64,000 nt of DNA from Paraspadella gotoi (taxonomy: Eukaryota > Animalia > Chaetognatha). This document shows positions 1 to 53,053 of the stretch, in pieces. The stretch lies in contig CM119267.1 of the NCBI GenBank assembly GCA_051294375.1, positions 22,383,486 to 22,447,485 on the forward strand, written 5' to 3'. The notes beneath the pieces are model-generated. The model saw only the letters and a list, made by a program, of their open reading frames with translations. It was not told where the DNA came from and made no database searches. How positions within the stretch are numbered: position 1 is the first letter of the stretch; each line of letters starts with the position of its first letter. The translations under genes and the position numbers were made by a program.

Positions 1-24
1 CAAAGGTCTGGGGTTCTAGCCCGG
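1..24 (+). mobile_element. Possible 3' half of a tRNA-derived (SINE-like) head, truncated by the window edge
   Basis: AAGGTCTGGGGTTCTAGCCCGG resembles the tRNA variable loop/T-arm with a Pol III B-box (GGTTCnAnnCC). The A-box would lie outside the window. Confidence 0.35.
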
Positions 25-33
25 TGGTCGTCT

Positions 34-108
34 GGCAGTTAAGAGGGACGGGCGCTTAACCCGCCTGTAACATGGTGTTACAGCCTGATCCGAAGCTCAG
101 GGACTGCT
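34..108 (+). ncRNA. Twister self-cleaving ribozyme candidate, type-P5 permutation
   Basis: P5 GGCAGTT(34-40)/GACTGCT(102-108); AA linker; P2 GAGG(43-46)/CCC(60-62, one nt short); conserved GA(47-48); pseudoknot T1 CGG(49-51)/CCG(90-92); cleavage motif TAA(57-59); T2 GC(63-64)/GC(95-96); P3 CTGTAACA(65-72)/TGTTACAG(76-83); P4 CCTGA(84-88)/TCAGG(97-101) closing loop T-CCG-AA-GC. Confidence 0.75.
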
Positions 109-175
109 TATATGAACGTTCTATCACTAACTGATAACAATAATTACTGTCTCTTCAACTGCTCCGTATCAGCGA

Positions 176-379
176 CTAAGTTATCGCTTCAATTATAACC
201 TGATCGTTTATAAGCGTCACCAAATCCTTGATGTGCCTATCGATTTCCCCCTTTCGGCTGAGATCAACTCCGCTCAACGCCTGCGTCTTTTGTTTGAAAA
301 ACACGTCCACCGCGCTCTTTTGTTTTTCGTCAGCATCGGACATAGTTCGAACAATAATTTCCCAGTGCGTATTTCTCAT
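176..379 (-). other. Short 67-aa ORF of unknown identity (small gene, exon or transposon fragment)
   Basis: ATG preceded by TTTTAG; same strand as the cluster; no recognisable motif. Confidence 0.25.
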
Positions 380-1142
380 ACGTAGAGATAACTAAAACGT
401 TTTTAGAAACATTTACAACATCGTTAGAAAAGGAAAGAGAAAAAAAAAGATCTACAGTCGCGCCGACTTTTTCGTCAGTAAAAAGTGTTTTGTGACATCA
501 CAGCGCGTGTAAAAGAACACGAAAAGAGAAAGAAAAATAACAAAAATTGATTGTTGGATCGAAAATTGGCAAATCGGGGAGGGAGGGGGTGAGTTTCGAT
601 CGCCGATCACGACAAAAGACTAGCAGTAAAAGAGTTCATTTTGTTCAATCTAAAGGAAAATAAATCAAACCGTTTTGTACGTGTGTGTATATTTTCTCTT
701 AAAGGCGTTCTTTGTCAACTTGAGGATTACAATTTTGAATTGCGGGTAGAGAGCGTGTATACAGAATATTTTGTAATGATTAGAAGACAAGGCACTGAAC
801 CGTCGGATTACAGGTTTTGGAAAAAAAAAACCACAAAAGACAACGCTGTGATATGATATGTCCATTAAAAATTACAAATATAAGTAAAATTTGCAAGAAA
901 GACATTCATCAGCGAGATAAAAACTCCGGATATGTCTTGGCCATGAAAAAAGAAGACACTACATTCATGGTGCGACGAATCACAACGGTATTAAACAACA
1001 ATAAATCTTTACTCGGTCCTATAAAAAACCTTGCGGGGTTTTTCTAAAAAGCTTTTAACTCGTACAAAACGAACCCTGTGAACACTTCTAGGTTTCGCGG
1101 TGATGTCTTTCTCTAGCATGTGTTGTTCTCTCTCTATCGCAT

Positions 1143-1694
1143 CTAGACGTCTAAGCAGGATCCGGCGCATTTTTTGATGGCGTCCCGGGCGAAGGGAATG
1201 TAGGAGATGGAGTACCAGGTCATCGCTAAAAACTGACAGATGCAGAAGATGAGCGTGAGGCCGCCCTTCTTTATAGCCAGTCCAGCGATTAGAGTCAAGA
1301 TCATAAACACGAAGACCAGCACCGTCGCAATGACCCGCGTCTTCGCGAACATCTTTTTAATCTGGTAAAAATTGGGACGAAACTTGTGTATTTGACGCCC
1401 TCCAAAAAACAGGAAAAACGTATAATGCCAAACCTGATTGACGGGGCCACAGAGGAAACACGTGGAGGACATGGCCACGATATTTCCCAAGGTGTAGAGG
1501 ATTCCAAAGGCCACCCACATGCTGAAGAAGATGCAAACGGAGCCGATGATGCTGAGGAGGATGCCGATAATGAAGCAGATGACGAAACCCTTGACCCGCG
1601 TTCCCCAACTCAACGTCGAATTGTCCATGACGCGAGTGAAAGCCCCGTCATCCTCCTCTTCCTCGCCGCTCAACGCGCGACGCAATTTATCCAT
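1143..1694 (-). CDS. SFT2D1: Vesicle transport protein SFT2 (SFT2D1/SFT2D2-like); 2 exons, intron 1362-1433
   Basis: MDKLRRALSG...STLSWGTRVKGFVICF...LYTLGNIVAMSSTCFLCGPVNQ|IKKMFAKTRVIAT...AMTWYSISYIPFARDA; 72-nt GT-AG intron read through in the ORF track. Paralog assignment is uncertain. Confidence 0.92.
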   Translation of the reverse strand: MDKLRRALSGEEEEDDGAFTRVMDNSTLSWGTRVKGFVICFIIGILLSIIGSVCIFFSMWVAFGILYTLGNIVAMSSTCFLCGPVNQVWHYTFFLFFGGRQIHKFRPNFYQIKKMFAKTRVIATVLVFVFMILTLIAGLAIKKGGLTLIFCICQFLAMTWYSISYIPFARDAIKKCAGSCLDV

Positions 1695-2029
1695 TTTTTT
1701 AATTCAAGAGGGAAAGGGGAATGTTTTTGATTTCGTGTGTGGGTTTTTTGTTATGTTTTGTTTTTGTTTTTGTTTTTTTTTGGCCTTTTGGTTAAATACG
1801 AGATTATAAACAGTTTATAACTGGATGTATATAGTTGAAGGTTGACAAGGCTGTAAAGATTCAAAAATAACAAAGAATAAATCGTAAATCGTAACACAAA
1901 CAACCGAACTACAAAAATCTTCTACAACTTCGGAAGCGGATGAATAAGGATCGAATCATTCGCCTCCGTCCACGGTTTATTCTCATGAAAATCTTTTCGA
2001 AAGAATCTCTTTCCACTCAGTCTCTCTCC

Positions 2030-4612
2030 TCAATCGTCGAACTTGAAAGAGTTGCACCCAGTGTCGATGGATCCGCCCTTGTAAGATCCTCGCTTCTTTT
2101 TCGTCTTCTCGTGCCTGAAGTCTTTGCCGCGGACTTTGATGAGTTGCTCGGCGGCCTGTTTGCCGTATTTGTCGAAGGAGCCGTCGTGTGAGTTGTCGCG
2201 GAGTTGAGGAAGGACTTGGATGTCCTCTTCCTTGACGCGGCGGAACCGATTGGGGGCGTTGTCCTTCTTGGCCTTTTTCGACGGAGGCTGGCCCGCGTCG
2301 AGGCTAGAGTCGGCCGTCACGAACGAAGCCGAGTTCGATTCGGAGTTGACCGAGTTCGCAGCGGCGGGCGTCGGGGGCTTGGGCGTGCTAGTGGCCAACG
2401 CCGATGGCGCTTTTTGCGGAACGGGAGTGTTTCCCGCCGAGGAGATCGCTTTTCGCTTGAGATCCGTTTTCTTAATGGGAGTGATGGAATCGACGTGGCC
2501 GTTGATCTTCTTCGGGGCAGAAGTTTCGTCTTCCGAGTCGCTCTCTTCTTCCGAGGAAGATTCCTCTTCGGAACTGGATTCCTCTTTCGCCGGAGTTTTC
2601 GTTGTTTTAGCAGCAACTTTGGCGCCATTTTTGTTTCCCGTTTTATCTCCTTCTTTGGCCGCATTTTTCGGCGGCGTTTTGGCGGTTGCCTTAGCCGAGT
2701 TCGCCGCTGGTGGAGCCGTTTCCTCGTCGCTCTCGTCGCTGTCCGTTTCTTCTTCGGATGAGCTCGATTCTTTTGCGGCGGCGGCTTTGACAGCAGCAGC
2801 TTTAGAATCTTTGGTTGCCGGTTTAGGAGCTTGGCCGTTAAGCTGCTGAGGAGTCGAGGTGTCCATCTCCGAATCGCTGGATGACTCCTCTTCCGAGGAA
2901 CTGGATTCTTCAACAGGCGCGGGTTTCTTAGTCGTTTTTGAGGCGACAGGTTTAACTTTATCCTCCGTTTTGGACCCTGCCTTGGACGCGCTCTTATCGG
3001 CCGCTTTTGGTGTCGTTTTAGAGGTTAGTTTAGGCGTCGCCTTTTTGGGCGTTGTTGTAGGCGACACTTTGGCGGCCGCTTTCGGCGTGGTTGGCTCTTT
3101 CGTGCCCTTTTTCGGCGGTGCTGGCGGCGTCGGCGCGGCCTTTTTAGGCTCGTCGTCGTCGGATTCTTCATCAGAAGATTCTTCTTCCGACGAGGATTCT
3201 TCTTTCTTCTCTATCGTAGTTTTAACAGCGGGGGTCTTTGAAGGCGCAGGTTTTTTCGCCGCTTCGTCCTCGTCCTCCGATTCCGAAGATTCCTCCTCGG
3301 AAGAGGAAGATTCCGCTTTTTTTGCTCTGTTTGCGACGGCCGGACTTTTTGCTTGAGCAGCGGCGGGCTTGACGGCCGGACTTTTTGGTTGAGCAGCGGC
3401 GGGCTTGGCGGCCGCCTTTACCGGCTCCTCTTCCTCGCTAGAAGATTCTTCCTCCGATGAACTCGAATCTTCTTTTTTCGAGGCTGCGGCGCCGGATTTA
3501 GGCTTGGACGGCGCCGAGACGGGGGCAGAAGGCTTGGTAGGCTCGTCGTCGTCCTCGCTGGACGATTCCTCTGAAGATTCTTCGGACGACGAGGGTTTCT
3601 TCGCGACTTCTTTGTTTTCCTTTTTCGCAGTCGTTTCCTTCATTTCTTCCTCGGTGTCGCTCTCCTCCTCGGAGGACGATTCCTCTTCCGAACTGGACTC
3701 GGCCTTAGCTGTCGTCTTCGTCGGGGTCTTCGTCGGGGTCTTCGTCGGGGTCTTCGTCGCTGGAGTGGCTGGTTTTGTCCCGCTCGCCTTGCCAGTTTTG
3801 GCGTTGGCGTTCTTGTCCGGAGTCTTCTTCGTCGCCGCAGTTTTGGATTTCTCCGCTGACTTTTTGCCGTTCTCCTTATTGGCCGCCGCCTTTTTGTTGG
3901 AAGCTTCATCACCCGGTTTTTGGGAAGCCTTGGGAGAAACTGATTTAGATTCTGCATTTTTCGTTGTCGTCGCAGTCGTTTGAGATTTCGACGTAGATTC
4001 CGATTCGCTCTCTTCGCTCTCAGATTCGTCCGATTCGTCCGACGAAGATTCGGGCGGCTTCTGCGTCTTCTTCACTTCGGGCTTTTTCGATTCGACTTTT
4101 TCCTTTCCCTTTTTAACTTCGGTCCCCTTCTTTAAGATTCCCTTCTTAGCATCTTCATTTTCCGCTTTCTTCGTTTCTTTCGCTTCCGTCTTCTTAACTT
4201 TGTCCTTTGTCCCTTTGGCTTCTTCCTTTTTCGCTTCCTTTTTATTCGCCTTCGCCGGCTTCTTTACTTTCTTTTCCTCCTCTTCCTCGGAACTCGACTC
4301 TTCCTCCTCCGAACTGGATTCCTTCTTTTCTTGTTTAGCCTTTTTCGCCGCCTGGATTTCTTCCATCTCGCTGTCACTCGACGACTCCGCTTCTCCTTTC
4401 CGAGATGCCGAAGCGCTCTTCCGCTTCAAGCACTCGTCCCTGATCCTCGTGAGCGAAGATTCGAAGAAGGCGGCCGCGTCGGCGTCGAGTTTAGGATCGA
4501 GGGCGATGGCGTACTTGTTTTGAATGATCTGGATCTCCTTGGGAAAGGTGGATTTGAGAAAAGAGCAGATGTAGGAGAGCACGTCCGCGTCCACCGGTTT
4601 TTTTGTCTCCAT
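2030..4612 (-). CDS. NOLC1: Nucleolar and coiled-body phosphoprotein 1 (Nopp140/SRP40), single exon
   Basis: Alternating acidic-serine (SSSEEESS) and K/A/P-rich blocks; SRP40_C end (FRRVK...KVRGKDFRHEKTKKKRGSYKGGSID...SFKFDD). First in-frame ATG is at 4612; the ORF track begins at a TTG. Confidence 0.93.
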   Translation of the reverse strand: METKKPVDADVLSYICSFLKSTFPKEIQIIQNKYAIALDPKLDADAAAFFESSLTRIRDECLKRKSASASRKGEAESSSDSEMEEIQAAKKAKQEKKESSSEEEESSSEEEEEKKVKKPAKANKKEAKKEEAKGTKDKVKKTEAKETKKAENEDAKKGILKKGTEVKKGKEKVESKKPEVKKTQKPPESSSDESDESESEESESESTSKSQTTATTTKNAESKSVSPKASQKPGDEASNKKAAANKENGKKSAEKSKTAATKKTPDKNANAKTGKASGTKPATPATKTPTKTPTKTPTKTTAKAESSSEEESSSEEESDTEEEMKETTAKKENKEVAKKPSSSEESSEESSSEDDDEPTKPSAPVSAPSKPKSGAAASKKEDSSSSEEESSSEEEEPVKAAAKPAAAQPKSPAVKPAAAQAKSPAVANRAKKAESSSSEEESSESEDEDEAAKKPAPSKTPAVKTTIEKKEESSSEEESSDEESDDDEPKKAAPTPPAPPKKGTKEPTTPKAAAKVSPTTTPKKATPKLTSKTTPKAADKSASKAGSKTEDKVKPVASKTTKKPAPVEESSSSEEESSSDSEMDTSTPQQLNGQAPKPATKDSKAAAVKAAAAKESSSSEEETDSDESDEETAPPAANSAKATAKTPPKNAAKEGDKTGNKNGAKVAAKTTKTPAKEESSSEEESSSEEESDSEDETSAPKKINGHVDSITPIKKTDLKRKAISSAGNTPVPQKAPSALATSTPKPPTPAAANSVNSESNSASFVTADSSLDAGQPPSKKAKKDNAPNRFRRVKEEDIQVLPQLRDNSHDGSFDKYGKQAAEQLIKVRGKDFRHEKTKKKRGSYKGGSIDTGCNSFKFDD

Positions 4613-11471: not shown

Positions 11472-14400
11472 TCAACGCGTAAAAGATCGAGAGTGATTCC
11501 GAGAATCAAAGTCCCTGCCTCCTCTTCCTGTCCCTCTTCCTCCGCGAGTGTGAAATCCACCTCCACCCCTCCCGCCCCCACGGTCATTAAACCCCCGCCC
11601 GTTGCCCCTCGGGGGGCTATCGCCTCGCGACCCGGCGAAGGTTCCGCTCCTCGGCGGGCTAGATCTCGGCCCAGCGCGGAATGGCTCTCGTGAAGATCCT
11701 CGCCCGCCGCCGGGATATCGACCTCTCGGGTCGCCTCCGCCCGCGCGGAATGGTAAGCCACGCGACGAGGACCCTCTCAACGGGGGATTAGTGGATCCGT
11801 TACGGGCTCTCTCCGAACTGCCGCCTCTTGTAGAATCGCGTTCGCGGATGAGTCGCGCCGGCGACCCCGTTCGATCCTCTTGACTCCCAGAGGCGCCGAC
11901 TTCGACGTTAGTCTTGGGCGAGCCCTCCTTGACCGGCCTCTCGGCGTTGAGGAGGTTGATCCTCTCCTGTTCTTTTTTCTCCCTCTCGTATTTTTCAATC
12001 TTGTCCAATTCCATCTGCAAGAAATCGTCGACATGCATGGATGGCGGGCGTGAGGTGTTGGGTGGACGCGATCGGAATGGATCCTGCCGGCCGGGCGGCC
12101 CACTCCGCGCCGGACAGCCACCGCGGCCGCCTCGCATAGGGGCAACGAACTTCTTGCCCTTCCCTCCTCCGCGGCTGATATTGATGGTGTCTCGGCCGGC
12201 GCGCTTCGGCTTCTTACGCGGAGTCTTGAAGTCCTCCGGCAGGTCGGGATGGTCCTTGGCCAGAGCCCCGACCAGATCAAAGTTATTTGCGTAGCGTTTG
12301 GCAAGATCCATGAGGTCAAGTTTTACGAGGTCGTCGTCGGTGGGATTATAGTAGTTTTCCTGTTCATCCCAAAATTCGGAGTTCAAACGTTCGTCTTCAT
12401 CTCTCAGGACGACGTACATGTTCCGCGAGGAGAACTTTGTCTCGAGGGAACGCGGTTTTTCCTTGAGGTCGACCTCCGTCATGACGGTGGTGGTGTGACG
12501 GCCAGAAGGTGGCGCCCCGTCGCCAAACATCCGTCCCAAGATATTGACCAGAGTCTCGTGAAGACTCTGGAGGGTCTCTTCGCCCTCCTCTTCCTCCTCG
12601 GCAGCATAGTCGTGTAGCAATTTCTCCAAGTCACCCAAGGGATGTTTTGTTTCGCGGTCACCATCCCACTTGACAAGTTGCTTTACATAATCTGGGCCGA
12701 AAACGTAACGGCGAAGTTGCTTGGAGCCTTCGGAGTCTTCCTCGCGTCCGTCGACGACCATCATGACGTTGAGCAACTCGATGGCGCCCTGTAGCATCGC
12801 CAGGTACTCGTCGTCCTTGGCAAAAGTCGAGTGAAGTCTCGCAAAGAGATTGTACAAATCTGAAGCTGCGCCTTCCTCGTTTTCGCGCTCGTAGTTTTTC
12901 TGAGCTTTGGTGAAAGCGTTTTTCAGGTGGAACATTGTATAGTCAAACTCGGAAAAGAGGACTAAACCTCGGAGGGCGCCTAAGACGCTGGACATTGAAT
13001 GATCATTGTTTCCAATGTGGGAGATGAGGGCCTCGGCGATGTCCCTTAGATACTTGGGGCTCGGAATGGCGTTTGCAAGCCTGACTTGAAGAGGAAGATC
13101 CGGGCCACAAAGATTAATGTCCGAATCCAGAAGGGATTGAAAAATTGTCCCGATACATTCCTGCAGCTGTAACGTCAAAGTATTGTCAGTCGACTCTTCG
13201 AAAACGTGCATAAGAATAGCTAAAAATCTTGGGGCTCTGGAAGGGTCGGCAACGGCGCCGTAACGACCCCTGGAGGCATCTCCCGTAGAATTTTTAAAAG
13301 CTTCATTGTCACTGCCATCGAGAAGCGAAAGAAAAGTACATTTGATGGATGGCTGGGATACAAGTACGCTGAATGCCGTCATGACTTTGGCACAAGCCGC
13401 CGCGGGATCTAAACCACCGGGAGTATTCATGAAATTGGCCGAGGTCGGCTTTACTGATTGTCCAATAATCAGATGCAGGCAGTCCAAAGCCATATCTTGA
13501 AAAGAGCCAAGAATTATCGCCGCCATTTGGTGGCTCAAGTCGGCGATTTGGCAGCAGACCTTTTGAAAAATTCCTTGATGCTTATGGGGCATGCAGAGCG
13601 CTTGCGTTTTTATCGTTTCGACCAGTTGATTTTTAAGAGGCAACATATGTCGCGACCAACGTTTACGATTCTCAGCGTGGATGGCAACCTCGGAGGTTGT
13701 CATTGGATGCCGCGTTTGAAGGGGTAGAGGGAATGGGAGTAACTCGCTGAGAAGTAGCATTCCGCCGTAAAAGGAATACGGCATTGTCTGGCAAAGATCG
13801 AGTATCTCTTTGATCATCATAGTCCAGAGCGAATCTTCGCTGGCGTCGTCCTCTCCCTTGTTCGAGACAGATACTTTATCGTTGATCGATCCCGTGGGAG
13901 CGTCCATAAGCTGAGTCAGCGCCAAAAGACCCTCGAGAACGTTGTGGCGTATGAGGCGGATCCTGGCAGGCGGTAACTTGATGTGCGACTGAATGCTGCA
14001 GAGAACGTTAAATGCCCCGAATAAAGGCTGAACGGGAGTCACGTCTTTGTAGTTGGTGGATTTTGCCTCGATCAGGTGCTTGAGAATGTTGGACAACAAA
14101 ACTACAGAGTGTTGAACAATGACGATTGCAGAGGAAACATCGGCACTGTTGATTAAAGCCCCTTGCTGCCACGGACGGATCAAAAAGTCGGAGCAAGTTT
14201 TAATCAAAACGTTTTGTAAATTTAGTTTTCCTTCCTCGTGGAAAAATTCCACGAGAGAAAAGCGATATTTTAACTCTCGTGCAACGGTCAAGCTCTCCTC
14301 GCCCTTTGACCCGTGTTTCGGAATGCCCTCGTTCCGCTCTTCGGGCGGAATGCAAAGGTCTACCAAGACTCGCAAGCAAGTGATTATCGCTTTGGGAATT

Positions 14401-17400
14401 CCCGATTCGCTTATTTCCTCGGAGAATGTTTTGAAATGTTTCGCCCAATCGGTGACGCTGGCGACGTCAAAACCGGAAGTCACGTCAAGAGTGACGCTCC
14501 ACAATTCGCGAATGACGTCAATCCGTGGCGCGTCGACGACGAGTTTTGTCTCGGCCTTTCCGATCACGTGCATCACACGTCGAGCGTATTTCCTAATAAA
14601 TTCCGCGTCGTCGCATTCCTGGGCAGCTAGGGCAACCAGTTGGACGGCATATCCGCCGGCGACGGGTAAAATGCGCGACAGACCGTCAACAGTATCCTCG
14701 TCTCCAGACTCTTGGGCCCGTCGCAACGCTTCCAAAAAGGGAATCAGAATCTCCATGTTATCGCCTCGAGTGAGAACCGAAACGACGGCGTCGGGAGAAA
14801 CCGAGTGAGAAAAATCGACCAGGCAGTGTAAAAGAGAGAGAATCACGTGAGAATCCTTCACCGCAGTTTCCTTCACCGCCGCTGAAATTTTTTGGGTCGA
14901 CCCGGCATCCAGCGATGAAACGAAACGACAATTTTCGTGAGCAGTCTTTATGCTATCCAATAAGTTCATGACGAACAGATGCTGGTGCAAAGAAACGCCG
15001 AGTTCCCCTTGGCGAGAAAGCGTGACGTTGGCCAGAGGATTTTTGTTGCTCTTGGGGGCGCTGGCTTCGACTGGCTCGTCCTTGCTGGCTTCGTCTTCGG
15101 GCGGAACGGAAGCGTCTCTTTCGGAATTATCGTCGCCGGCTTGACTTTGGACAGGATCGAGGTTGTCATCTTTAGTCAAATGATTAATTATCCTTTCGGA
15201 AGATTCTTCCCGGGATCCCAAGAAGATCAAACCCGCTGGTCGCTTTATCAACGACGTCAGCATCTGGGATATGGCGTTGTTCAATGGTGCGTAGCAAGTC
15301 GCCACGTCGGAAGATAAAAGCATGGCGATCGATTCCAACAAACTGTGCGTGTCGAATATGTGACATAGAAACGAAGTCCAGTCTGATTCTGCCGTTAGGA
15401 CGGCGAATTGTTGTGACGACGGCAAGCAGCGTCGATGAGCCGCGAATAACCGGTCACCCTCCGTCCATGCTGTCGCGAGGTTTTTCAGGAAACCAATTAT
15501 GTCGTCTAGATCCTTTTCCTGGGAGCTCGAAAAGATCGCACCATTGCCTTGATTGGACTCCGTTTGTTCGTCACTACTTAACTGCACAATGAACGTTCCA
15601 TCTTCGCCCTCAACCGTGGAAACGCTCGATGCTACTCTTTCAGTCGTCTTCATAAGCAAACTAAGTTCCTCGTAAATGTGCGCCTTTCGGAAAACGACAG
15701 AAAGCGCGACGGTGACGCGCGCCAATTGTTTCGTCGTCGCCACAATATCCATGAGACGTTGATATGGAGTTTGCCCTTTCCGATCGATCAGAGTGAAAAA
15801 GTGCTGCATGCCCGATTTGAGGCGGATTGACGCTTCCAGGGCTTTGACAATGTGCAGTTTGACGGATGTGGACATGTTCGGCGAGACAAACAGACTCAGC
15901 AAGCGGTGCTGTAGGTGACGTTTATTGGCCTCCGAGGCGATGTGATTGTCGCAGTGGCAGAGCGCCGTCGCCAAGGCGACGCCGGCCTTGAGATGACGCA
16001 CCTTGAATGGCGTTTCCGGTTGAGCCATGGCCATTTCGAGATCCAAACCTTCCAAGGTCCAGTGGATTAGAGTTGTCAAGACGTCGTAGCGTCCTTCCAT
16101 GGAGATTAAGTAGGCGAGTCCGATGGGAATGAGAGCCGGGAGACCCTCCATGGTGACGACCCATTTTTCGTTCCGCCCAACCGGAAAATTTCGGTTTTCC
16201 TCGTCGCCTGATGTCGGCGAACCGTCGCTTCTTCCGGTTTCGCGGCCAGAGGGATGTCGTGCGATAGTTTCCAAGATGGCGGTTGCTTCATCAGGACGCG
16301 GTTCTTCTTCCTCTTCCTCCGCGTTGTCGCTGTCGCGTGAACGAAGCATCATTTTGCGACGAAAGCTGCGCTTCATGGATTCCACCTGGAAATGCAAAAT
16401 AAAGTACAAAATACAAAATACAGTACAAAGACGGAAACAAATTTACTCACTTGGTTAATTAATTAATTAATTAATTAATTATTACGAACAAAAATAATTT
16501 AATTTCAAAATTATTTTTCTCTTTCACTTTTCTTTGCAGTTTACTAAAATATTAAAAAATAAATAAATATTAATTTATTAAAAAAAAGTTCTATTTTTTT
16601 TTAAAAACAGACATAGATTGGAGTCTTCTTTAGCGCAAAGTGAATTGACTCGTTGTTGGTAAGAAAATCAAAATTTGTTTACTTTAAATTTTAAACGTAC
16701 CTGCCATTCGTAGTCCGTCAGGGAGGGATTCCTCATCGATTTTAGTCCTTCCACGCGGAACCGTCCCTCGGCGTCGGGCAGCCACGACGAGACTCTGGCG
16801 ACTCCCGCTTTCAGCCAATCGATCTCCTCGGCCAACTGCTCCATGGTTACGCCCCCACCAGTTGAGGCGTCTTCGATGAAATCCTCGTCGTCCGAGATCT
16901 CCTCCAAGTCGCCCATGAGGTCGGGTTCAGCGTCCTGGATTTCCCCGTCCTCACCGCCTTGTTTTTCCAGAGGCTTGTCGTTCGGCGGAGGGAGGGAGCG
17001 TTTGGAGTCGTCCTTGTCGGGCGATAGACGCGGCGGCACGCGGAAGTGGCGGTCGTGACTCTTGGAGGATCGAGAGGCGGCGGAAGGGGAAGCGTCGCGG
17101 GGTCGGAGGACGCCTAAAAATTGTAAAATTTAAAGTAGCGGTAGCCGACCAAATTCAAATTTTAATGGGAACAGCATTAAACAAATCCATTATTGCTATT
17201 AGTTATGGTTCGGAACATTTTTGCAAAAAAATATTTTAACACCGAGTAATTAGCTAATTAAAATTATTATATGTAGCAGTGTGGACGCAACAATTTGTGG
17301 ATTATCTCAAATGAGATCGAGTTCCTCAATTTCATTTGCATATTGTCGTATTCTGATTAAGCCATGAAAAATATTTGTTCTATTGCCTTAAAGGTTAAAT

Positions 17401-45412: not shown

Positions 45413-48400
45413 TTAACTGGAATCTCTCGATCGCGACTGACGCTGAGACAACATCGTCTCGAACTCGTTGACCATCTCTTCTACGGGATCGCCCTTGACG
45501 GCCTCCAGTTCTTTGGCCAAAGTTTCTACGTGCTTGGACGAGCTCTCCCTCAGGTTTAGGTATTTCTCCTCCATCGCTTTCGCCCTCTCCGCCTCTTTTC
45601 TCATTTTGTTTTGCATGGCGACGATTTGGCGACGAGCGTGTTGCTGATTGGCTTCGGCTTCTTGGGTCAGACGGGAGACGGCGACGCGACTGGCCGCGAT
45701 CATGGCCGAGGCTTGACCCATCACATGATCCATCTTTAGTTTCTCTGCCGAGATTGACATTTTGTCTTGAGTTCTCTCTCTTTCCAGGGAGTCTTTCAAC
45801 TGTTGCGCTTCGACTAGCTCCTTTTGCAATTCGTCGAATCTGGTTTTGAACCAATCTCCCGCCTGTTTTAAATGTATGGAGACCTGAAGGGATTCGTCGT
45901 GAGCGTACTGCAGCTTCTCTGCCGTGTCTCGATTCAAAGCCGTCAATTCTTTCTCTCGTTTTCTCAAAACTTTATATTTCGCCTTCAACGAGAGATACTT
46001 TTCCTTCTCTTTGGCGACGGCTTCTTTTTGGGCTTCGATGAGAGCCGTGGATTTCTCTTGATGGTCGGTGAAGCAACTGAGATCGTTTTGCAACCGCGAC
46101 GCCTCCTCATAGGCGCGGCTCGTTTTCAACGCTTGGTCCTTTGCTTCCTTCTCCAATAATCTCCGATTTCTCTCCGCGTTTCCCAGCTCCTGTTCCAGTT
46201 TCGCGTTGGCGTCCAACGCGGACTCGTACTTATCCTTCAACTCGATAAGTTCTCTGATTTGCGTTCGTTGACTGGCCAGTTTATCCTTCTGCACTTGGAT
46301 ATTGCATTTCAATTTCTCTATCTCCTCGATGTTGGCGTCTCCACTTTTTCTCAGCTCCACGCATCGAGAGGCGAGCTTAGAGTTTTCTGCTTTGATCTCG
46401 TTCAGCTCCTTCTCATGCTTTCGCTTAAGCTTCGCCAAGTGGGCTTCTTTATCTTTCTCCGCTTTGTTGAGTTTGTTGTCAAACTCGACGCGCTGACTCG
46501 ACTCTTGGCTGCTCCTCTCTTGAAACGCCTTTTCCAACTGCAATTGGAGATTTTCCATTTCTCTGCTGGAGCAATCCGCGGATGCTCGGAGTTCGTCGTT
46601 GGCGCCGATCATGAGTTGAAGAGACGAGGCTAATTTCTGATTATCAGCGACCATGATCCGAATTTCCCTTTTCAGCGCATCCATCTCGACGTTGTTGCTG
46701 TATTGAAGATTATCCATTTCCGATTTGACCTCTATGTACTTTTGTTTCAATCTTGCTTCGTTCTCGTTTTTGTTCGAAATGTCTTCCTCCTTTTGCACCA
46801 AAGCGGCGTCCTTTCTTCCCAACTCTCTCTTCAATTCTTCGATCGTCGACTGCAAGTGGGAATGCGAGCCGACGGTTTTTTCCAGCGTCGCCGCCAACTT
46901 AGCGTTGTCGTTTTTCACGTCGAGGAGTTCCGTCCGCAAATCAGAAATGGTTTTCTCGCTTTCGCTCTCCTTTTTTTCTAGAGCGTCGGCCAGGTCCGAG
47001 ATTTGAGCCAAAGCGTCGTCTCTCGATCGCAGGGCGAGCTCAAAGTCTCGCTCTTTCTGTTCCGCACCCTGCTGCGTCACGAGCAGCTGCTGCTGGAGCT
47101 GCTCGCAATTCTCCCTGATCGTTTTAATCTCCCTTTCCAAGAAATAAAGTTTTTTGGCCGTGTCGTCCTTCTCGTTCTCCAAAATTTCCTTTTCCATCTT
47201 GACCGATTCGAAATCCTCGAGCTTTTCTCGGAATTGATCCACCTGAGATTCCAATTCCCCTTTTTCATAAGAGAGTTGAGAACATCGATCCATCAAAGAT
47301 CTAAGTTGATCCTGAGAGACGTCTTGTTGCTGGAGCGAGGAAATTCTTTCCCTCAACGACGACAATTCCCCTCGCATCTCTTCATTTTCGTTTCTCAATT
47401 CATTCAACTCTTCACTCTTATCCTCCAACGCCTTCTCCAGTCTGGCTTTTTCCTTTTGAACCGCCTCCGCCTTCTGATCAAGTTTCTTCAAAATGCTCTG
47501 GGCGTTTTTCTCGAGATCTTCCTTGGATGTTACCGCCTTCTTCAATTCCCCGTTCAACTTTGAAAAAGATTTCCTCAAATTCTCAACGTCGGCGTTTTTA
47601 TTATCGTTCTCCTTTCTGAGGGAGGATTCGCTCTGCTTGAGACACTCCAACTCTTGTAGCATCTCCACGTTCTTCGCGTTGAGCTCCTCGATTTTCCCGC
47701 GAAAATTCCGATTCTCGTACTTGATTCGGTTGGTTTCGTCGGAGGAGGCTCCGGCTCTGCCCTTCAACTCGTCCCTCTCCGTCTCCAAATCTCGAATGAC
47801 CCGCGACTGATCCTCGACGCGTTCCTCAGCTTCCCGAACCCGCTCGAGAAGATCGTCGGTCTCCGACTGAACCGCCTTCAATTGATCGACCATCCTCGAC
47901 TTTTCCGCCTCAGATTTAAGCAGATCATCGACTTTGGTTCTCGCCTCCGCCTCGGACCTCGCCAGCGCCTCCTCCAAACGCTTCCTCTCCTGGGCGGACT
48001 TGTTCATCTGCTGATCCATCGAGGTGGTTTTTTTCCTCAACTCGATCGCTTCGACGCTTAAACTTGAGACCGTTTTCCGTTCCGAGTCGACGGCCGAATC
48101 CATCTCTTGGATCCGCTTCAGCAAAAGGGCGTGGCTCTCCTCCAGCTTCATCCGGATGGTCCGCTCCGCCTCGACCTCGCGCCCGGCTTCGCTTACCATC
48201 TGCCGCAGGTTGATGACGTCGTCGTTCATGGAAGAGAGCTTCTCGGACAGTTCCACCTTGTCGCTGTTGTTGGTGTCAAGCATCGACTCGGCGTGCTTCA
48301 CCCTCATCTCCGCGCTCTGCCTGAGAACTCTTTCGTTTTGAATCTCGGCCTTGGCCTGGAGGACCTGACCCCTGAGCTCCTGCAAATCCTTCTCGTAGGA

Positions 48401-49165
48401 CTCGTTGAGCCGGTTCATCCTGTCCGACTTGTAGGAGCAACCCTTGCACTCGGACATCGCCTCCTTGGAGGCAAGCTTGAGTTTGAGGGATTGGATCGTG
48501 CTCTCCAGACTACAGAGGCGGGTGACCAGCATCTCGTAATTCTTGTAGACAGTCTCTACGTTGGACCCGCTCCTCGCGACGAAAGAAGCGACGGGAAAAG
48601 TTGGATGAATGTTGCGCTGAGGGGAATGAAGACCATTTCGAACACCGTTCCTCTGATCGAGCAAAAGGCCGTTCGAAATAGCGTCCTGCGACGCCCCCGC
48701 GACGCGATCGCCCGCGTCGTCTTCAGTTTTGACATCGTTACTGTTATTGTTATTACAGTTGGCTACTACTGCCGCTGGCAAGTGATTGGCTGATGAGGAG
48801 GGCAAGCCCGTGCCCGAAGAAATCGAGGAACTTCTCGACGAGGGAACGCTGATGCTATCGATGTTGGAGATGGGTGGATTGGGCCTAGTCTTCTCCGTTT
48901 TCCGCCTGGGTGTGGCGAATGGGCGGGCGACGCGGTTATCGTCTCGCGCCTCGTCCATCTCGTCGACCAAGAGATGAACGTCCAATTGGGCAGAGTTCAT
49001 CCTCCGCGAGAGTTTATGAATCATGTCGTCGACGACGCCGTTGCCCGGAGACGGAGCCGGCGCCGCGGCGTTGGCGGGGCGAGTCCCGGACGGGCGTTCC
49101 GACGACGAGCATGCCGCGTTGGAGATTCGGTGGATGGGCGTGGGTTTGAGAATCGGGCGCTGCAT
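45413..49165 (-). CDS. CCDC150: Coiled-coil domain-containing protein 150-like, single exon, 1250 aa
   Basis: Long coiled coil; LVTRLCSLESTIQSLKL, ELGRKD and HLKQAGDWFKTRFDELQKEL resemble conserved CCDC150 blocks as recalled. Confidence 0.72.
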   Translation of the reverse strand: MQRPILKPTPIHRISNAACSSSERPSGTRPANAAAPAPSPGNGVVDDMIHKLSRRMNSAQLDVHLLVDEMDEARDDNRVARPFATPRRKTEKTRPNPPISNIDSISVPSSRSSSISSGTGLPSSSANHLPAAVVANCNNNNSNDVKTEDDAGDRVAGASQDAISNGLLLDQRNGVRNGLHSPQRNIHPTFPVASFVARSGSNVETVYKNYEMLVTRLCSLESTIQSLKLKLASKEAMSECKGCSYKSDRMNRLNESYEKDLQELRGQVLQAKAEIQNERVLRQSAEMRVKHAESMLDTNNSDKVELSEKLSSMNDDVINLRQMVSEAGREVEAERTIRMKLEESHALLLKRIQEMDSAVDSERKTVSSLSVEAIELRKKTTSMDQQMNKSAQERKRLEEALARSEAEARTKVDDLLKSEAEKSRMVDQLKAVQSETDDLLERVREAEERVEDQSRVIRDLETERDELKGRAGASSDETNRIKYENRNFRGKIEELNAKNVEMLQELECLKQSESSLRKENDNKNADVENLRKSFSKLNGELKKAVTSKEDLEKNAQSILKKLDQKAEAVQKEKARLEKALEDKSEELNELRNENEEMRGELSSLRERISSLQQQDVSQDQLRSLMDRCSQLSYEKGELESQVDQFREKLEDFESVKMEKEILENEKDDTAKKLYFLEREIKTIRENCEQLQQQLLVTQQGAEQKERDFELALRSRDDALAQISDLADALEKKESESEKTISDLRTELLDVKNDNAKLAATLEKTVGSHSHLQSTIEELKRELGRKDAALVQKEEDISNKNENEARLKQKYIEVKSEMDNLQYSNNVEMDALKREIRIMVADNQKLASSLQLMIGANDELRASADCSSREMENLQLQLEKAFQERSSQESSQRVEFDNKLNKAEKDKEAHLAKLKRKHEKELNEIKAENSKLASRCVELRKSGDANIEEIEKLKCNIQVQKDKLASQRTQIRELIELKDKYESALDANAKLEQELGNAERNRRLLEKEAKDQALKTSRAYEEASRLQNDLSCFTDHQEKSTALIEAQKEAVAKEKEKYLSLKAKYKVLRKREKELTALNRDTAEKLQYAHDESLQVSIHLKQAGDWFKTRFDELQKELVEAQQLKDSLERERTQDKMSISAEKLKMDHVMGQASAMIAASRVAVSRLTQEAEANQQHARRQIVAMQNKMRKEAERAKAMEEKYLNLRESSSKHVETLAKELEAVKGDPVEEMVNEFETMLSQRQSRSRDSS

Positions 49166-49469
49166 CTCATCTAGTTTTTTTCGTCGTACCCTGACTTCCG
49201 CGAGTCTGAGAGATTCTCCCGACGCCTTCCATCGTCGTCCTCGTCGTCGTCACTCCCCTTTCTCGCTTCTTTATTTTTTTTTGTAATCGATCGAAACGAA
49301 TTAAAGAAAAAAAGAAAATAGGCGTAATCAATTGAAAATCATAAATACCGACGGATCGCTAAAGAATAAACCATGTACAACGACAACGCATGTAATAAAT
49401 CAAGCAGTTGTTTACACGAACGCAATGTATAACGAGTCTCTTCCTCATTTTTACCCCCCAAATCTTCGT

Positions 49470-53043: not shown

Positions 53044-53053
53044 NNNNNNNNNN
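53044..53053. other. Assembly gap (10 N)
   Basis: Run of n in the EEF2-TM2D2 spacer. Confidence 1.

Follow-up and report, generated by a model that had tools for sequence, protein, structure and literature searches.

The first 157 nucleotides of a 64,000-nucleotide stretch of the genome of the chaetognath Paraspadella gotoi (assembly GCA_051294375.1, contig CM119267.1, positions 22,383,486 to 22,447,485 of the forward strand; hereafter the window) raise the question of whether a natural twister ribozyme can do without stem P1, and by what means it might then act. The 75-nt motif at 34–108 (+), which lies in a dispersed repeat, is real, is common to the whole repeat family and belongs to the twister class, in an unusual type-P5 form that has no P1; catalysis and a dimeric mode of action are predictions. 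On balance, we consider it probable that 34–108 is a conserved, P1-less type-P5 twister-class motif of a high-copy retroelement, predicted to be cut between U57 and A58, and likely so when two copies pair through the palindrome GCGC.

The pairings of the motif, all on the + strand, were verified by script on the window sequence. The outer stem P5 joins 34–40 to 102–108 through seven pairs, two of them G-U, and is followed by A41 A42, which match the AAA of the Rfam twister-P1 consensus. P2 consists of C60-G46, C61-G45 and C62-G43, with A44 bulged, its 3' strand (GAGG) lying at 43–46 and its 5' strand (CCC) at 60–62. At 47–48, G47 A48 occupy the position of the GA in the GAGGG of the consensus, G47 being the predicted general base by the role assigned in McKinley 2024. 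The T1 pseudoknot pairs C49 G50 G51 (49–51) with C90 C91 G92 through three Watson-Crick pairs. In the place of P1 stands the linker GCGCU (52–56), of which 52–55 form the palindrome GCGC. U57 A58 A59 (57–59) match the UAA of the consensus, and place the predicted cleavage between 57 and 58. The second pseudoknot, T2, joins G63 C64 (63–64) to G95 C96. The P3 hairpin (65–83) has eight perfect pairs, 65–72 with 76–83, around a UGG loop, and P4 (84–101) has five pairs, 84–88 with 97–101, closed by the loop L4 UCCGAAGC. P5, the AA linker, P2, GA, T1, UAA, T2, P3 and P4 had all been proposed in a preliminary description of this DNA, and each was found where it had been placed. The same description had called the CGG/CCG form of T1 compensatory, and a single T1 pair is indeed altered on both strands, with all pairs Watson-Crick; it had also reported a P1 reduced to GCGCT and a P2 of CCC against GAGG, which is what the sequence holds, A44 being the bulged base.

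The twister ribozyme class is reportedly due to Roth et al. (2014). As a reference for it, the printed Rfam twister-P1 consensus (RF03160) was used: ccuu UAA cgCc GC C..G cCGG UCCCAAGC CCGg gUAAA gGcg GAGGG aagg. The motif keeps UAA, GC, a C-G-closed P3 abutting P4, the L4 pattern U-CC-AA-GC, AA and GA-GG, and it has the conserved L1 bases of the class (U57 A58 A59, G47 A48). Its L4 differs from the UCCCAAGC of the consensus by one change, which is compensated in T1, where the pair C49-G92 is flipped relative to the G-C of the Rfam consensus. In overall layout the motif resembles the type-P5 twister (RF02684; PMC5408937), being open at P5 and having T1 and T2, UAA, GA before T1, an L4 of the form U-NNN-AA-GC and the optional P3; it differs in the absence of the P1 hairpin, in a P2 of three pairs and a bulge without the conserved C-G, and in the one flipped T1 pair. 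The start of P3, CUGUA, is also like the Rfam consensus, but was dropped as evidence, as P3 is diverse in 92 phage twister matches.

How often such a layout arises was estimated with a descriptor. It asks for a P4 hairpin whose loop reads N-KKK-AA-KK and, ahead of this, in order, for GA and the KKK complement, 2–40 nt of free linker, NAA, a P2 of 3–5 nt in which one bulge may occur, and the KK complement. A first-order Markov model of the window supplied 44 Mb of random sequence, in which this core matched 472 times (1.37 per 128 kb); T2 was GC in 19 of these matches, P5 had at least seven pairs in 13, and just one of the 472 combined a loop U, AA before P2 and a P5 of at least five pairs. The real window gave four match rows, namely the candidate and three other loci, whose loops are rich in A or T, which lack the AA ahead of P2, and whose P5 stops at two or three pairs.

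The repeat that carries the motif occupies <1..157 (+), the window beginning inside it, and represents the 3' portion of a dispersed element present in very many copies. Between 4730 and 4810 public contigs were matched to the window, and their summed depth, which does not equal copy number, was 0.3–2.9 million over 1–154 in run X1 against 94.7–134.6 over the unique flank. As a depth ratio this is of the order of 10^4 (a rough figure), in an invertebrate-like genome. The right border is sharp at 157/158, behind which the contigs diverge into varied AT-rich flanks (loose-end agreement 0.39–0.5); the flanks of other copies carry TA runs, unlike that of the window copy. The motif ends about 50 nt before the 3' end of the repeat. 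The family is young and recently amplified, with nearly everything conserved. No further copy of the motif was found inside the 64-kb window, and no tandem array at or near 1–200, although the preliminary description had placed the motif just past the end of one; the region upstream of the window lies outside view. Elsewhere, a metagenome scan returned one unrelated match (L001), two genome-contig scans returned none and one chance match (L093), and viral contigs contained no copies. A hump in depth at 64–105 was entertained as a hint that copies start where the RNA would be cut, and then dropped, there being no listed loose end before 58 and a flat depth within each contig.

Variation among the copies was read as marginal frequencies of contig depth per run, in which individual copies are not separable. 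Ten sites within 34–108 vary at 2% of depth or more in X1. Five of them affect the loop of P3, the linker or position -1: U73C (49%) and G74A (2.1%) in the P3 loop; an extra G in the G-run after C49 (33% in X1, 54% in X5, 71% in X9 and 89% in X6); C55U (3.2%); and U57A (2.6%), at position -1. Three keep a pair, namely G34A (44%), which turns a G-U of P5 into A-U, C107U (2.4%) and C49U (2.5%). Two break one: A72U (10.8%), at the closing pair of P3, and G92A (10.4%). At this threshold no variant falls within 35–48, 50–52 or 58–66, or at G47, A48, A58, A59, G63, C64 or A93–C96 (shares without a named run are from X1). Since the motif belongs to a very high-copy repeat, the loss of P1 and the bulge in P2 are properties of the whole family rather than damage to a single copy; the suggestion in the preliminary description that this might be a decayed copy was thus abandoned, the more so as the same P2 bulge is present in Naiad_Mphi, one of the elements considered next.

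Naiads are Penelope-like elements that occur in many invertebrate phyla, in up to tens of thousands of copies, favour (TA)n insertion targets and lack canonical hammerheads (Craig et al. 2021, PMC8557442). The 3' ends of three bivalve consensi from the supplement of that study, Naiad_Mphi, Naiad_Scon and Naiad_Mmer, were compared with the window by eye. They had been found through the seven-letter word TTCCAAG, three of whose 21 matches were relevant, among the 54 Naiad families of Craig et al. All three tails have the same order of modules as the window: P5, AA, P2, GA, GGU, palindrome, U/AA, P2', T2, C[P3]G, P4, U.CC.AA.G., P4' and P5'. In Naiad_Mphi, a P5 of 10 pairs is followed by AA, the P2 3' strand GCGG, GA, GGU, one 12-nt palindrome, U/AA, the P2 5' strand CCC, T2 AC, a P3 made of C, seven pairs and G, and P4 CCCG/CGGG with the L4 UUCCAAGU. 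Naiad_Scon has a P5 of about 12 pairs, AA, GUGC as its P2 3' strand, GA, GGU, palindrome(s) UGGAGCGCUCCA, U/AA, GCAC as its P2 5' strand, T2 CC, and P4 ACCG/CGGU with the L4 UUCCAAGG. Naiad_Mmer has a P5 of about 14 pairs, AA, GAGU, GA, GGU, the palindromes GGUGCGCACC then AAACCGGUUU, U/AA, GCUC and T2 CC, and the same P4 and L4 (ACCG/CGGU, UUCCAAGG) as Naiad_Scon. A fourth family, Naiad_Bpla, has P4 CCUG/CAGG and the L4 UACCAAGU in the only part of it that was seen.

Pairing is maintained between the families while the sequences change. The eighth base of L4 and the first of T2 form C-G in the window, U-A in Naiad_Mphi and G-C in Naiad_Scon and Naiad_Mmer, the T2 strands being GC/GC, AC/GU and CC/GG, respectively. 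P2 reads CCC/G(A)GG in the window, CCC/G(C)GG in Naiad_Mphi, GCAC/GUGC in Naiad_Scon and GCUC/GAGU in Naiad_Mmer, so that Naiad_Mphi has the three-against-four arrangement of the window with its bulge at the same place. One T1 pair, the flipped C49-G92, covaries between the window and the three Naiad consensi, which have the G-C of the Rfam consensus, and P3, P4 and P5 differ in sequence, yet all still pair. Judged by eye, the cross-family covariation falls on the tertiary pairs that define twister. There are also differences: the Naiad motifs carry 10–12-nt palindromes and, except in Naiad_Mphi with its single palindrome, a second one of the form AAACC(N)GGUUU before the cleavage site, whereas the window has GCGC(U) only; their L4 is UUCCAAG(U/G) and their T1 GG(U), against UCCGAAGC and CGG; and the tails after the motif are longer in the Naiad consensi than in the window repeat.

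From these likenesses, the repeat is probably the tail of a Naiad-type Penelope-like element or of a derivative of one, possibly non-autonomous. The preliminary description had noted the link of animal twisters to non-LTR (long terminal repeat) retrotransposons; the likely host is instead a Penelope-like element of the Naiad type or its derivative. The word twister does not occur in the main text of Craig et al. 2021, nor in a 2026 preprint on retrozymes and Penelope-like elements. By title and abstract, none of the listed publications that pair twister with Penelope-like elements describes a twister in such an element, and the passages seen in two of them concern hammerheads only, although the supplement of McKinley 2024, with its thousands of candidates, may bear on this; literature pairing twister and retrozyme yielded no relevant publication. 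The remaining 18 of the 21 TTCCAAG matches, as well as the TCCGAAGC matches in Naiad_Amil and Naiad_Aacu, all from the Craig supplement, are unrelated to the motif. The 5' region of the ctenophore consensus Naiad_Bfor contains AA-GUGG-GA-GGU, then UAA preceded by the palindrome AAAUCGAUUU, and further on CACC-GC and a hairpin like P4 whose loop is UCGAAAGC; going by its letters, this may be a remote version of the motif, in which T1 is not placeable.

What stands in the place of P1 bears on how the motif could act. In all three bivalve Naiad consensi a palindrome directly follows T1, and in two of the three its centre is GCGC, as in the window linker. The self-duplex energy of GCGC is -5.1 kcal/mol and that of GGCGCU (51–56) -8.3 kcal/mol, and where the common extra G is present, GGCGCU comes after CGG and can self-pair over six positions with G-U ends. 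The precedent comes from the hammerheads of Penelope-like elements, in which no stable helix III forms and the loops are palindromic, and which are considered to act as a dimer of tandem copies (PMC4209133). Twisters, for their part, can dispense with P1 in vitro (PMC5408937; McKinley 2024), so that a monomeric and a two-copy mode are both conceivable. A two-copy mode is favoured because self-complementarity recurs at the place of P1 across families, and the GCGC of the linker suggests such a dimer rather than a simple mini-twister. A broader version of this idea is offered tentatively, as somewhat less than an even prospect: that Naiads in general carry a dimer-dependent twister, with a palindrome for P1, that cuts only when two copies swap halves, the family in the window being the most reduced, with a palindrome of 4–6 nt.

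Under the favoured reading, RNA of the repeat would be made, and two copies, either the pseudo-LTRs of a tandem insertion or two separate molecules, would exchange halves, the GCGC of one pairing with that of the other to supply a common P1, as in the dimers of Penelope-like hammerheads. Cleavage would then follow the twister mechanism, G47 acting as the general base and A58 as the general acid, and cutting would trim tandem transcripts to unit length.

Several results weigh against this reading. Stem P1 is absent, with only five nucleotides (GCGCU) between T1 and U57, and P1 is one of three stems that the consensus treats as essential (PMC5408937). P2 has three pairs and a bulge, without the conserved C-G pair of the Rfam consensus (C10-G57), and an alternative register, C60-G47, C61-G46 and C62-G45, would bury the predicted general base. 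Imperfections in P2 were tolerated in McKinley 2024. The stability of the nested fold is ordinary (z = -0.79, + strand); at -21.3 kcal/mol it is 5.8 kcal/mol worse than the minimum free energy (MFE) structure, which at -27.1 kcal/mol forms a rival hairpin of 46–52 with 60–65 that replaces P2, T1 and T2. The Rfam twister models RF02684, RF02681 and RF03160 gave no match at gathering on the whole window, and at E<=10 no twister was returned for 1–300, 28–114 (87 bases) or the whole window, the rows that did come up being chance matches to snoRNAs and sRNAs. Among the loose ends listed, copies beginning at 58 were not in excess. C49U and G92A, the two halves of a T1 pair, are not taken as covariation; both are at CpG, their shares are unequal, and CpG decay explains them. 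With regard to the dimer, the MFE structure of two cofolded copies is driven by the P3 palindrome and not by GCGC, and a 4-nt palindrome is expected by chance in about one in eight 5-nt linkers (our own arithmetic). Finally, because the element's upstream part falls outside the window, what links the repeat to Naiads is the resemblance of the motif together with the copy number and the composition of the flanks.

The silence of Rfam is understandable because the missing P1 hairpin, the deletion in P2 and the presence of a P3 would, by our own estimate, each lower the score of the type-P5 model. As a positive control for the scan, the gathering score of RF03160 was reached by three of 15 phage loci with a twister-like pattern. 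The twister interpretation put forward in the preliminary description stands in part: its anatomy holds and is strengthened by the Naiad tails, while the covariance-model check proposed alongside it came back negative, with no Rfam twister row even at E<=10.

A serious rival, if a rather unlikely one, is that 34–108 is a structured 3' module that does not cut, such as a handle for the reverse transcriptase, descended from twister or converging on it. The missing P1, a P2 that lacks the conserved C-G and can slip so as to bury G47, the more stable rival hairpin and the Rfam result all fit this explanation, as do the reports that Naiads proliferate well without a canonical ribozyme (PMC8557442) and that in vitro cutting by Penelope-like hammerheads is only weak (PMC4209133). 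It accounts less readily for the bases that are intolerant of change (McKinley 2024), namely A1, A2, the general-base G, PK1 (T2 in the present nomenclature) and A6 of L4, all of which are kept and have no variant at 2% or more. Covariation of T2 across Naiad families is likewise expected if the tertiary fold matters, but would be unneeded in a simple handle for a protein.

Less probable still is that the same ribozyme works as a monomer, a closed natural 'mini-twister' in which a linker of 5–6 nt does no more than span the gap from T1 to the cleavage site, the palindrome being without function. In its favour, twisters lacking P1 cleave in vitro at near wild-type rate (PMC5408937), and imperfections in P1 were without effect in the CHiTA assay (McKinley 2024). 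Against a monomer, palindromes of 10–12 nt occur at the same place in Naiad_Mphi, Naiad_Scon and Naiad_Mmer, two of them centred on GCGC, which points to selection for self-complementarity, and the engineered mini-twister was open at its 5' end instead of being closed by a linker (PMC5408937).

A different origin altogether, which we regard as improbable, would make the 75-nt four-way junction a module of a tRNA-derived short interspersed element (SINE), its likeness to twister being a by-product. P5 would then be an acceptor-like stem, P2 the D stem, T1 the contact of the D-loop GG with the T-loop YC, and L4 the T loop. In size the module is like a tRNA: it measures 75 nt, its outer stem 7 bp and its linker 2 nt, and a stem of 5 bp carries the loop UCCGAAGC, which we take to be two changes away from the T-loop consensus. 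A second hairpin that is T-arm-like, CUGGG/CCCGG with the 7-nt loop GUUCUAG, was read from the sequence at 8–24 (+), upstream of the motif and within the repeat, and presumably resembles a tRNA T arm or Pol III B box. ARAGORN, however, predicted no tRNA genes in 1–3000, and no Rfam tRNA was returned at E<=10; the 'anticodon arm' would be eight pairs long around a loop of 3 nt, the 'D loop' would span 13 nt, and a variable loop is missing. The layout recurs, moreover, in the 3' untranslated ends of Naiad consensi, and these code for protein and are not SINEs. That an unrelated repeat should resemble twister by chance, compatible as this is with the ordinary stability of the nested fold and the frequent matches of the loose core descriptor, is very improbable given that the full descriptor occurs once in 44 Mb and that the likeness to three Naiad tails extends module by module, with covariation.

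Besides the type-P5 twister itself and the Naiad tails, three known systems come close to a P1-less twister acting through two copies. The mini-twister engineered by Kosutic et al. 2015 (via PMC5408937) likewise lacks P1 and keeps the core, but is a laboratory construct with an open 5' end, whereas in the window the gap is closed by a palindromic linker of 5–6 nt and the element is natural and high in copy number. The minimal hammerheads in the pseudo-LTRs of Penelope-like elements (Cervera and de la Pena 2014, PMC4209133; see also Lunse et al. 2017) would share with it the small self-cleaving motif near a 3' end or terminal repeat, the palindrome in place of a helix and the need for two copies; they belong to another ribozyme class, and dimer action was demonstrated for them, while for the window motif it is a prediction. 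The T-variant twisters of Perere-3 in Schistosoma mansoni are again variants of twister that serve a retroelement and have an unusual P1, but they lie at the 5' end of a non-LTR element, follow a type-P1-like order, derive P1 from the target-site duplication, and have proven activity (Liu et al. 2021, PMC8501958).

Craig et al. 2021 left open why Naiads, more prolific in invertebrates than any other Penelope-like elements, are without the hammerhead found in all canonical ones. If the favoured reading is true, a twister-class motif in the hammerhead's place would answer this question, and would imply that what counts is the ribozyme's task, whatever its class. The motif would be, in addition, a natural P1-less twister, a form so far only engineered, and, if the broader version holds, the first twister known to need two copies, a counterpart of the dimeric Penelope-like hammerheads. 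The palindrome in place of P1 leads to the testable idea that twisters, like hammerheads, can be gated by dimer formation. As the P1-less form would be missed by standard covariance models, counts of twisters in animal genomes are probably underestimates.

Among side observations on the scans, a twister-like pattern was seen in 91 phage loci of the viral contigs (L002–L092); the three of 15 tested loci that pass Rfam gathering have been mentioned, and all match the core pattern. The Rfam threshold misses many phage twisters.

After the motif, the tail of the repeat at 109–157 (+) is more variable and is rich in indels at 110–123; depth in X1 dips to 92,939 at 113–119, and indels lie at 112–117. 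The remainder of the window has a gene arrangement that is unusually compact and one-directional for an animal. Its long open reading frames (ORFs), between 1143 and 62191, are all on the minus strand and nearly intron-free; they comprise Got1, SRP40, Virilizer_N, UPF2, XPG and Vps54, together with two, of 1656 aa (11472–16442, minus) and 1278 aa (45413–49249, minus), for which Pfam gave no family at E<=0.001. The window proteins are animal-like, in a genome that seems poor in introns; their closest named relatives are from molluscs, a brachiopod, an annelid and a hemichordate, thus largely lophotrochozoans, at 39–52% identity. An assembly gap of 10 N lies at 53044–53053. At 1361–1434, near the Got1-like ORF, contigs of runs X5 and X9 skip 72 bases (ends CT..AC), which may represent an indel polymorphism or a small intron-like segment.

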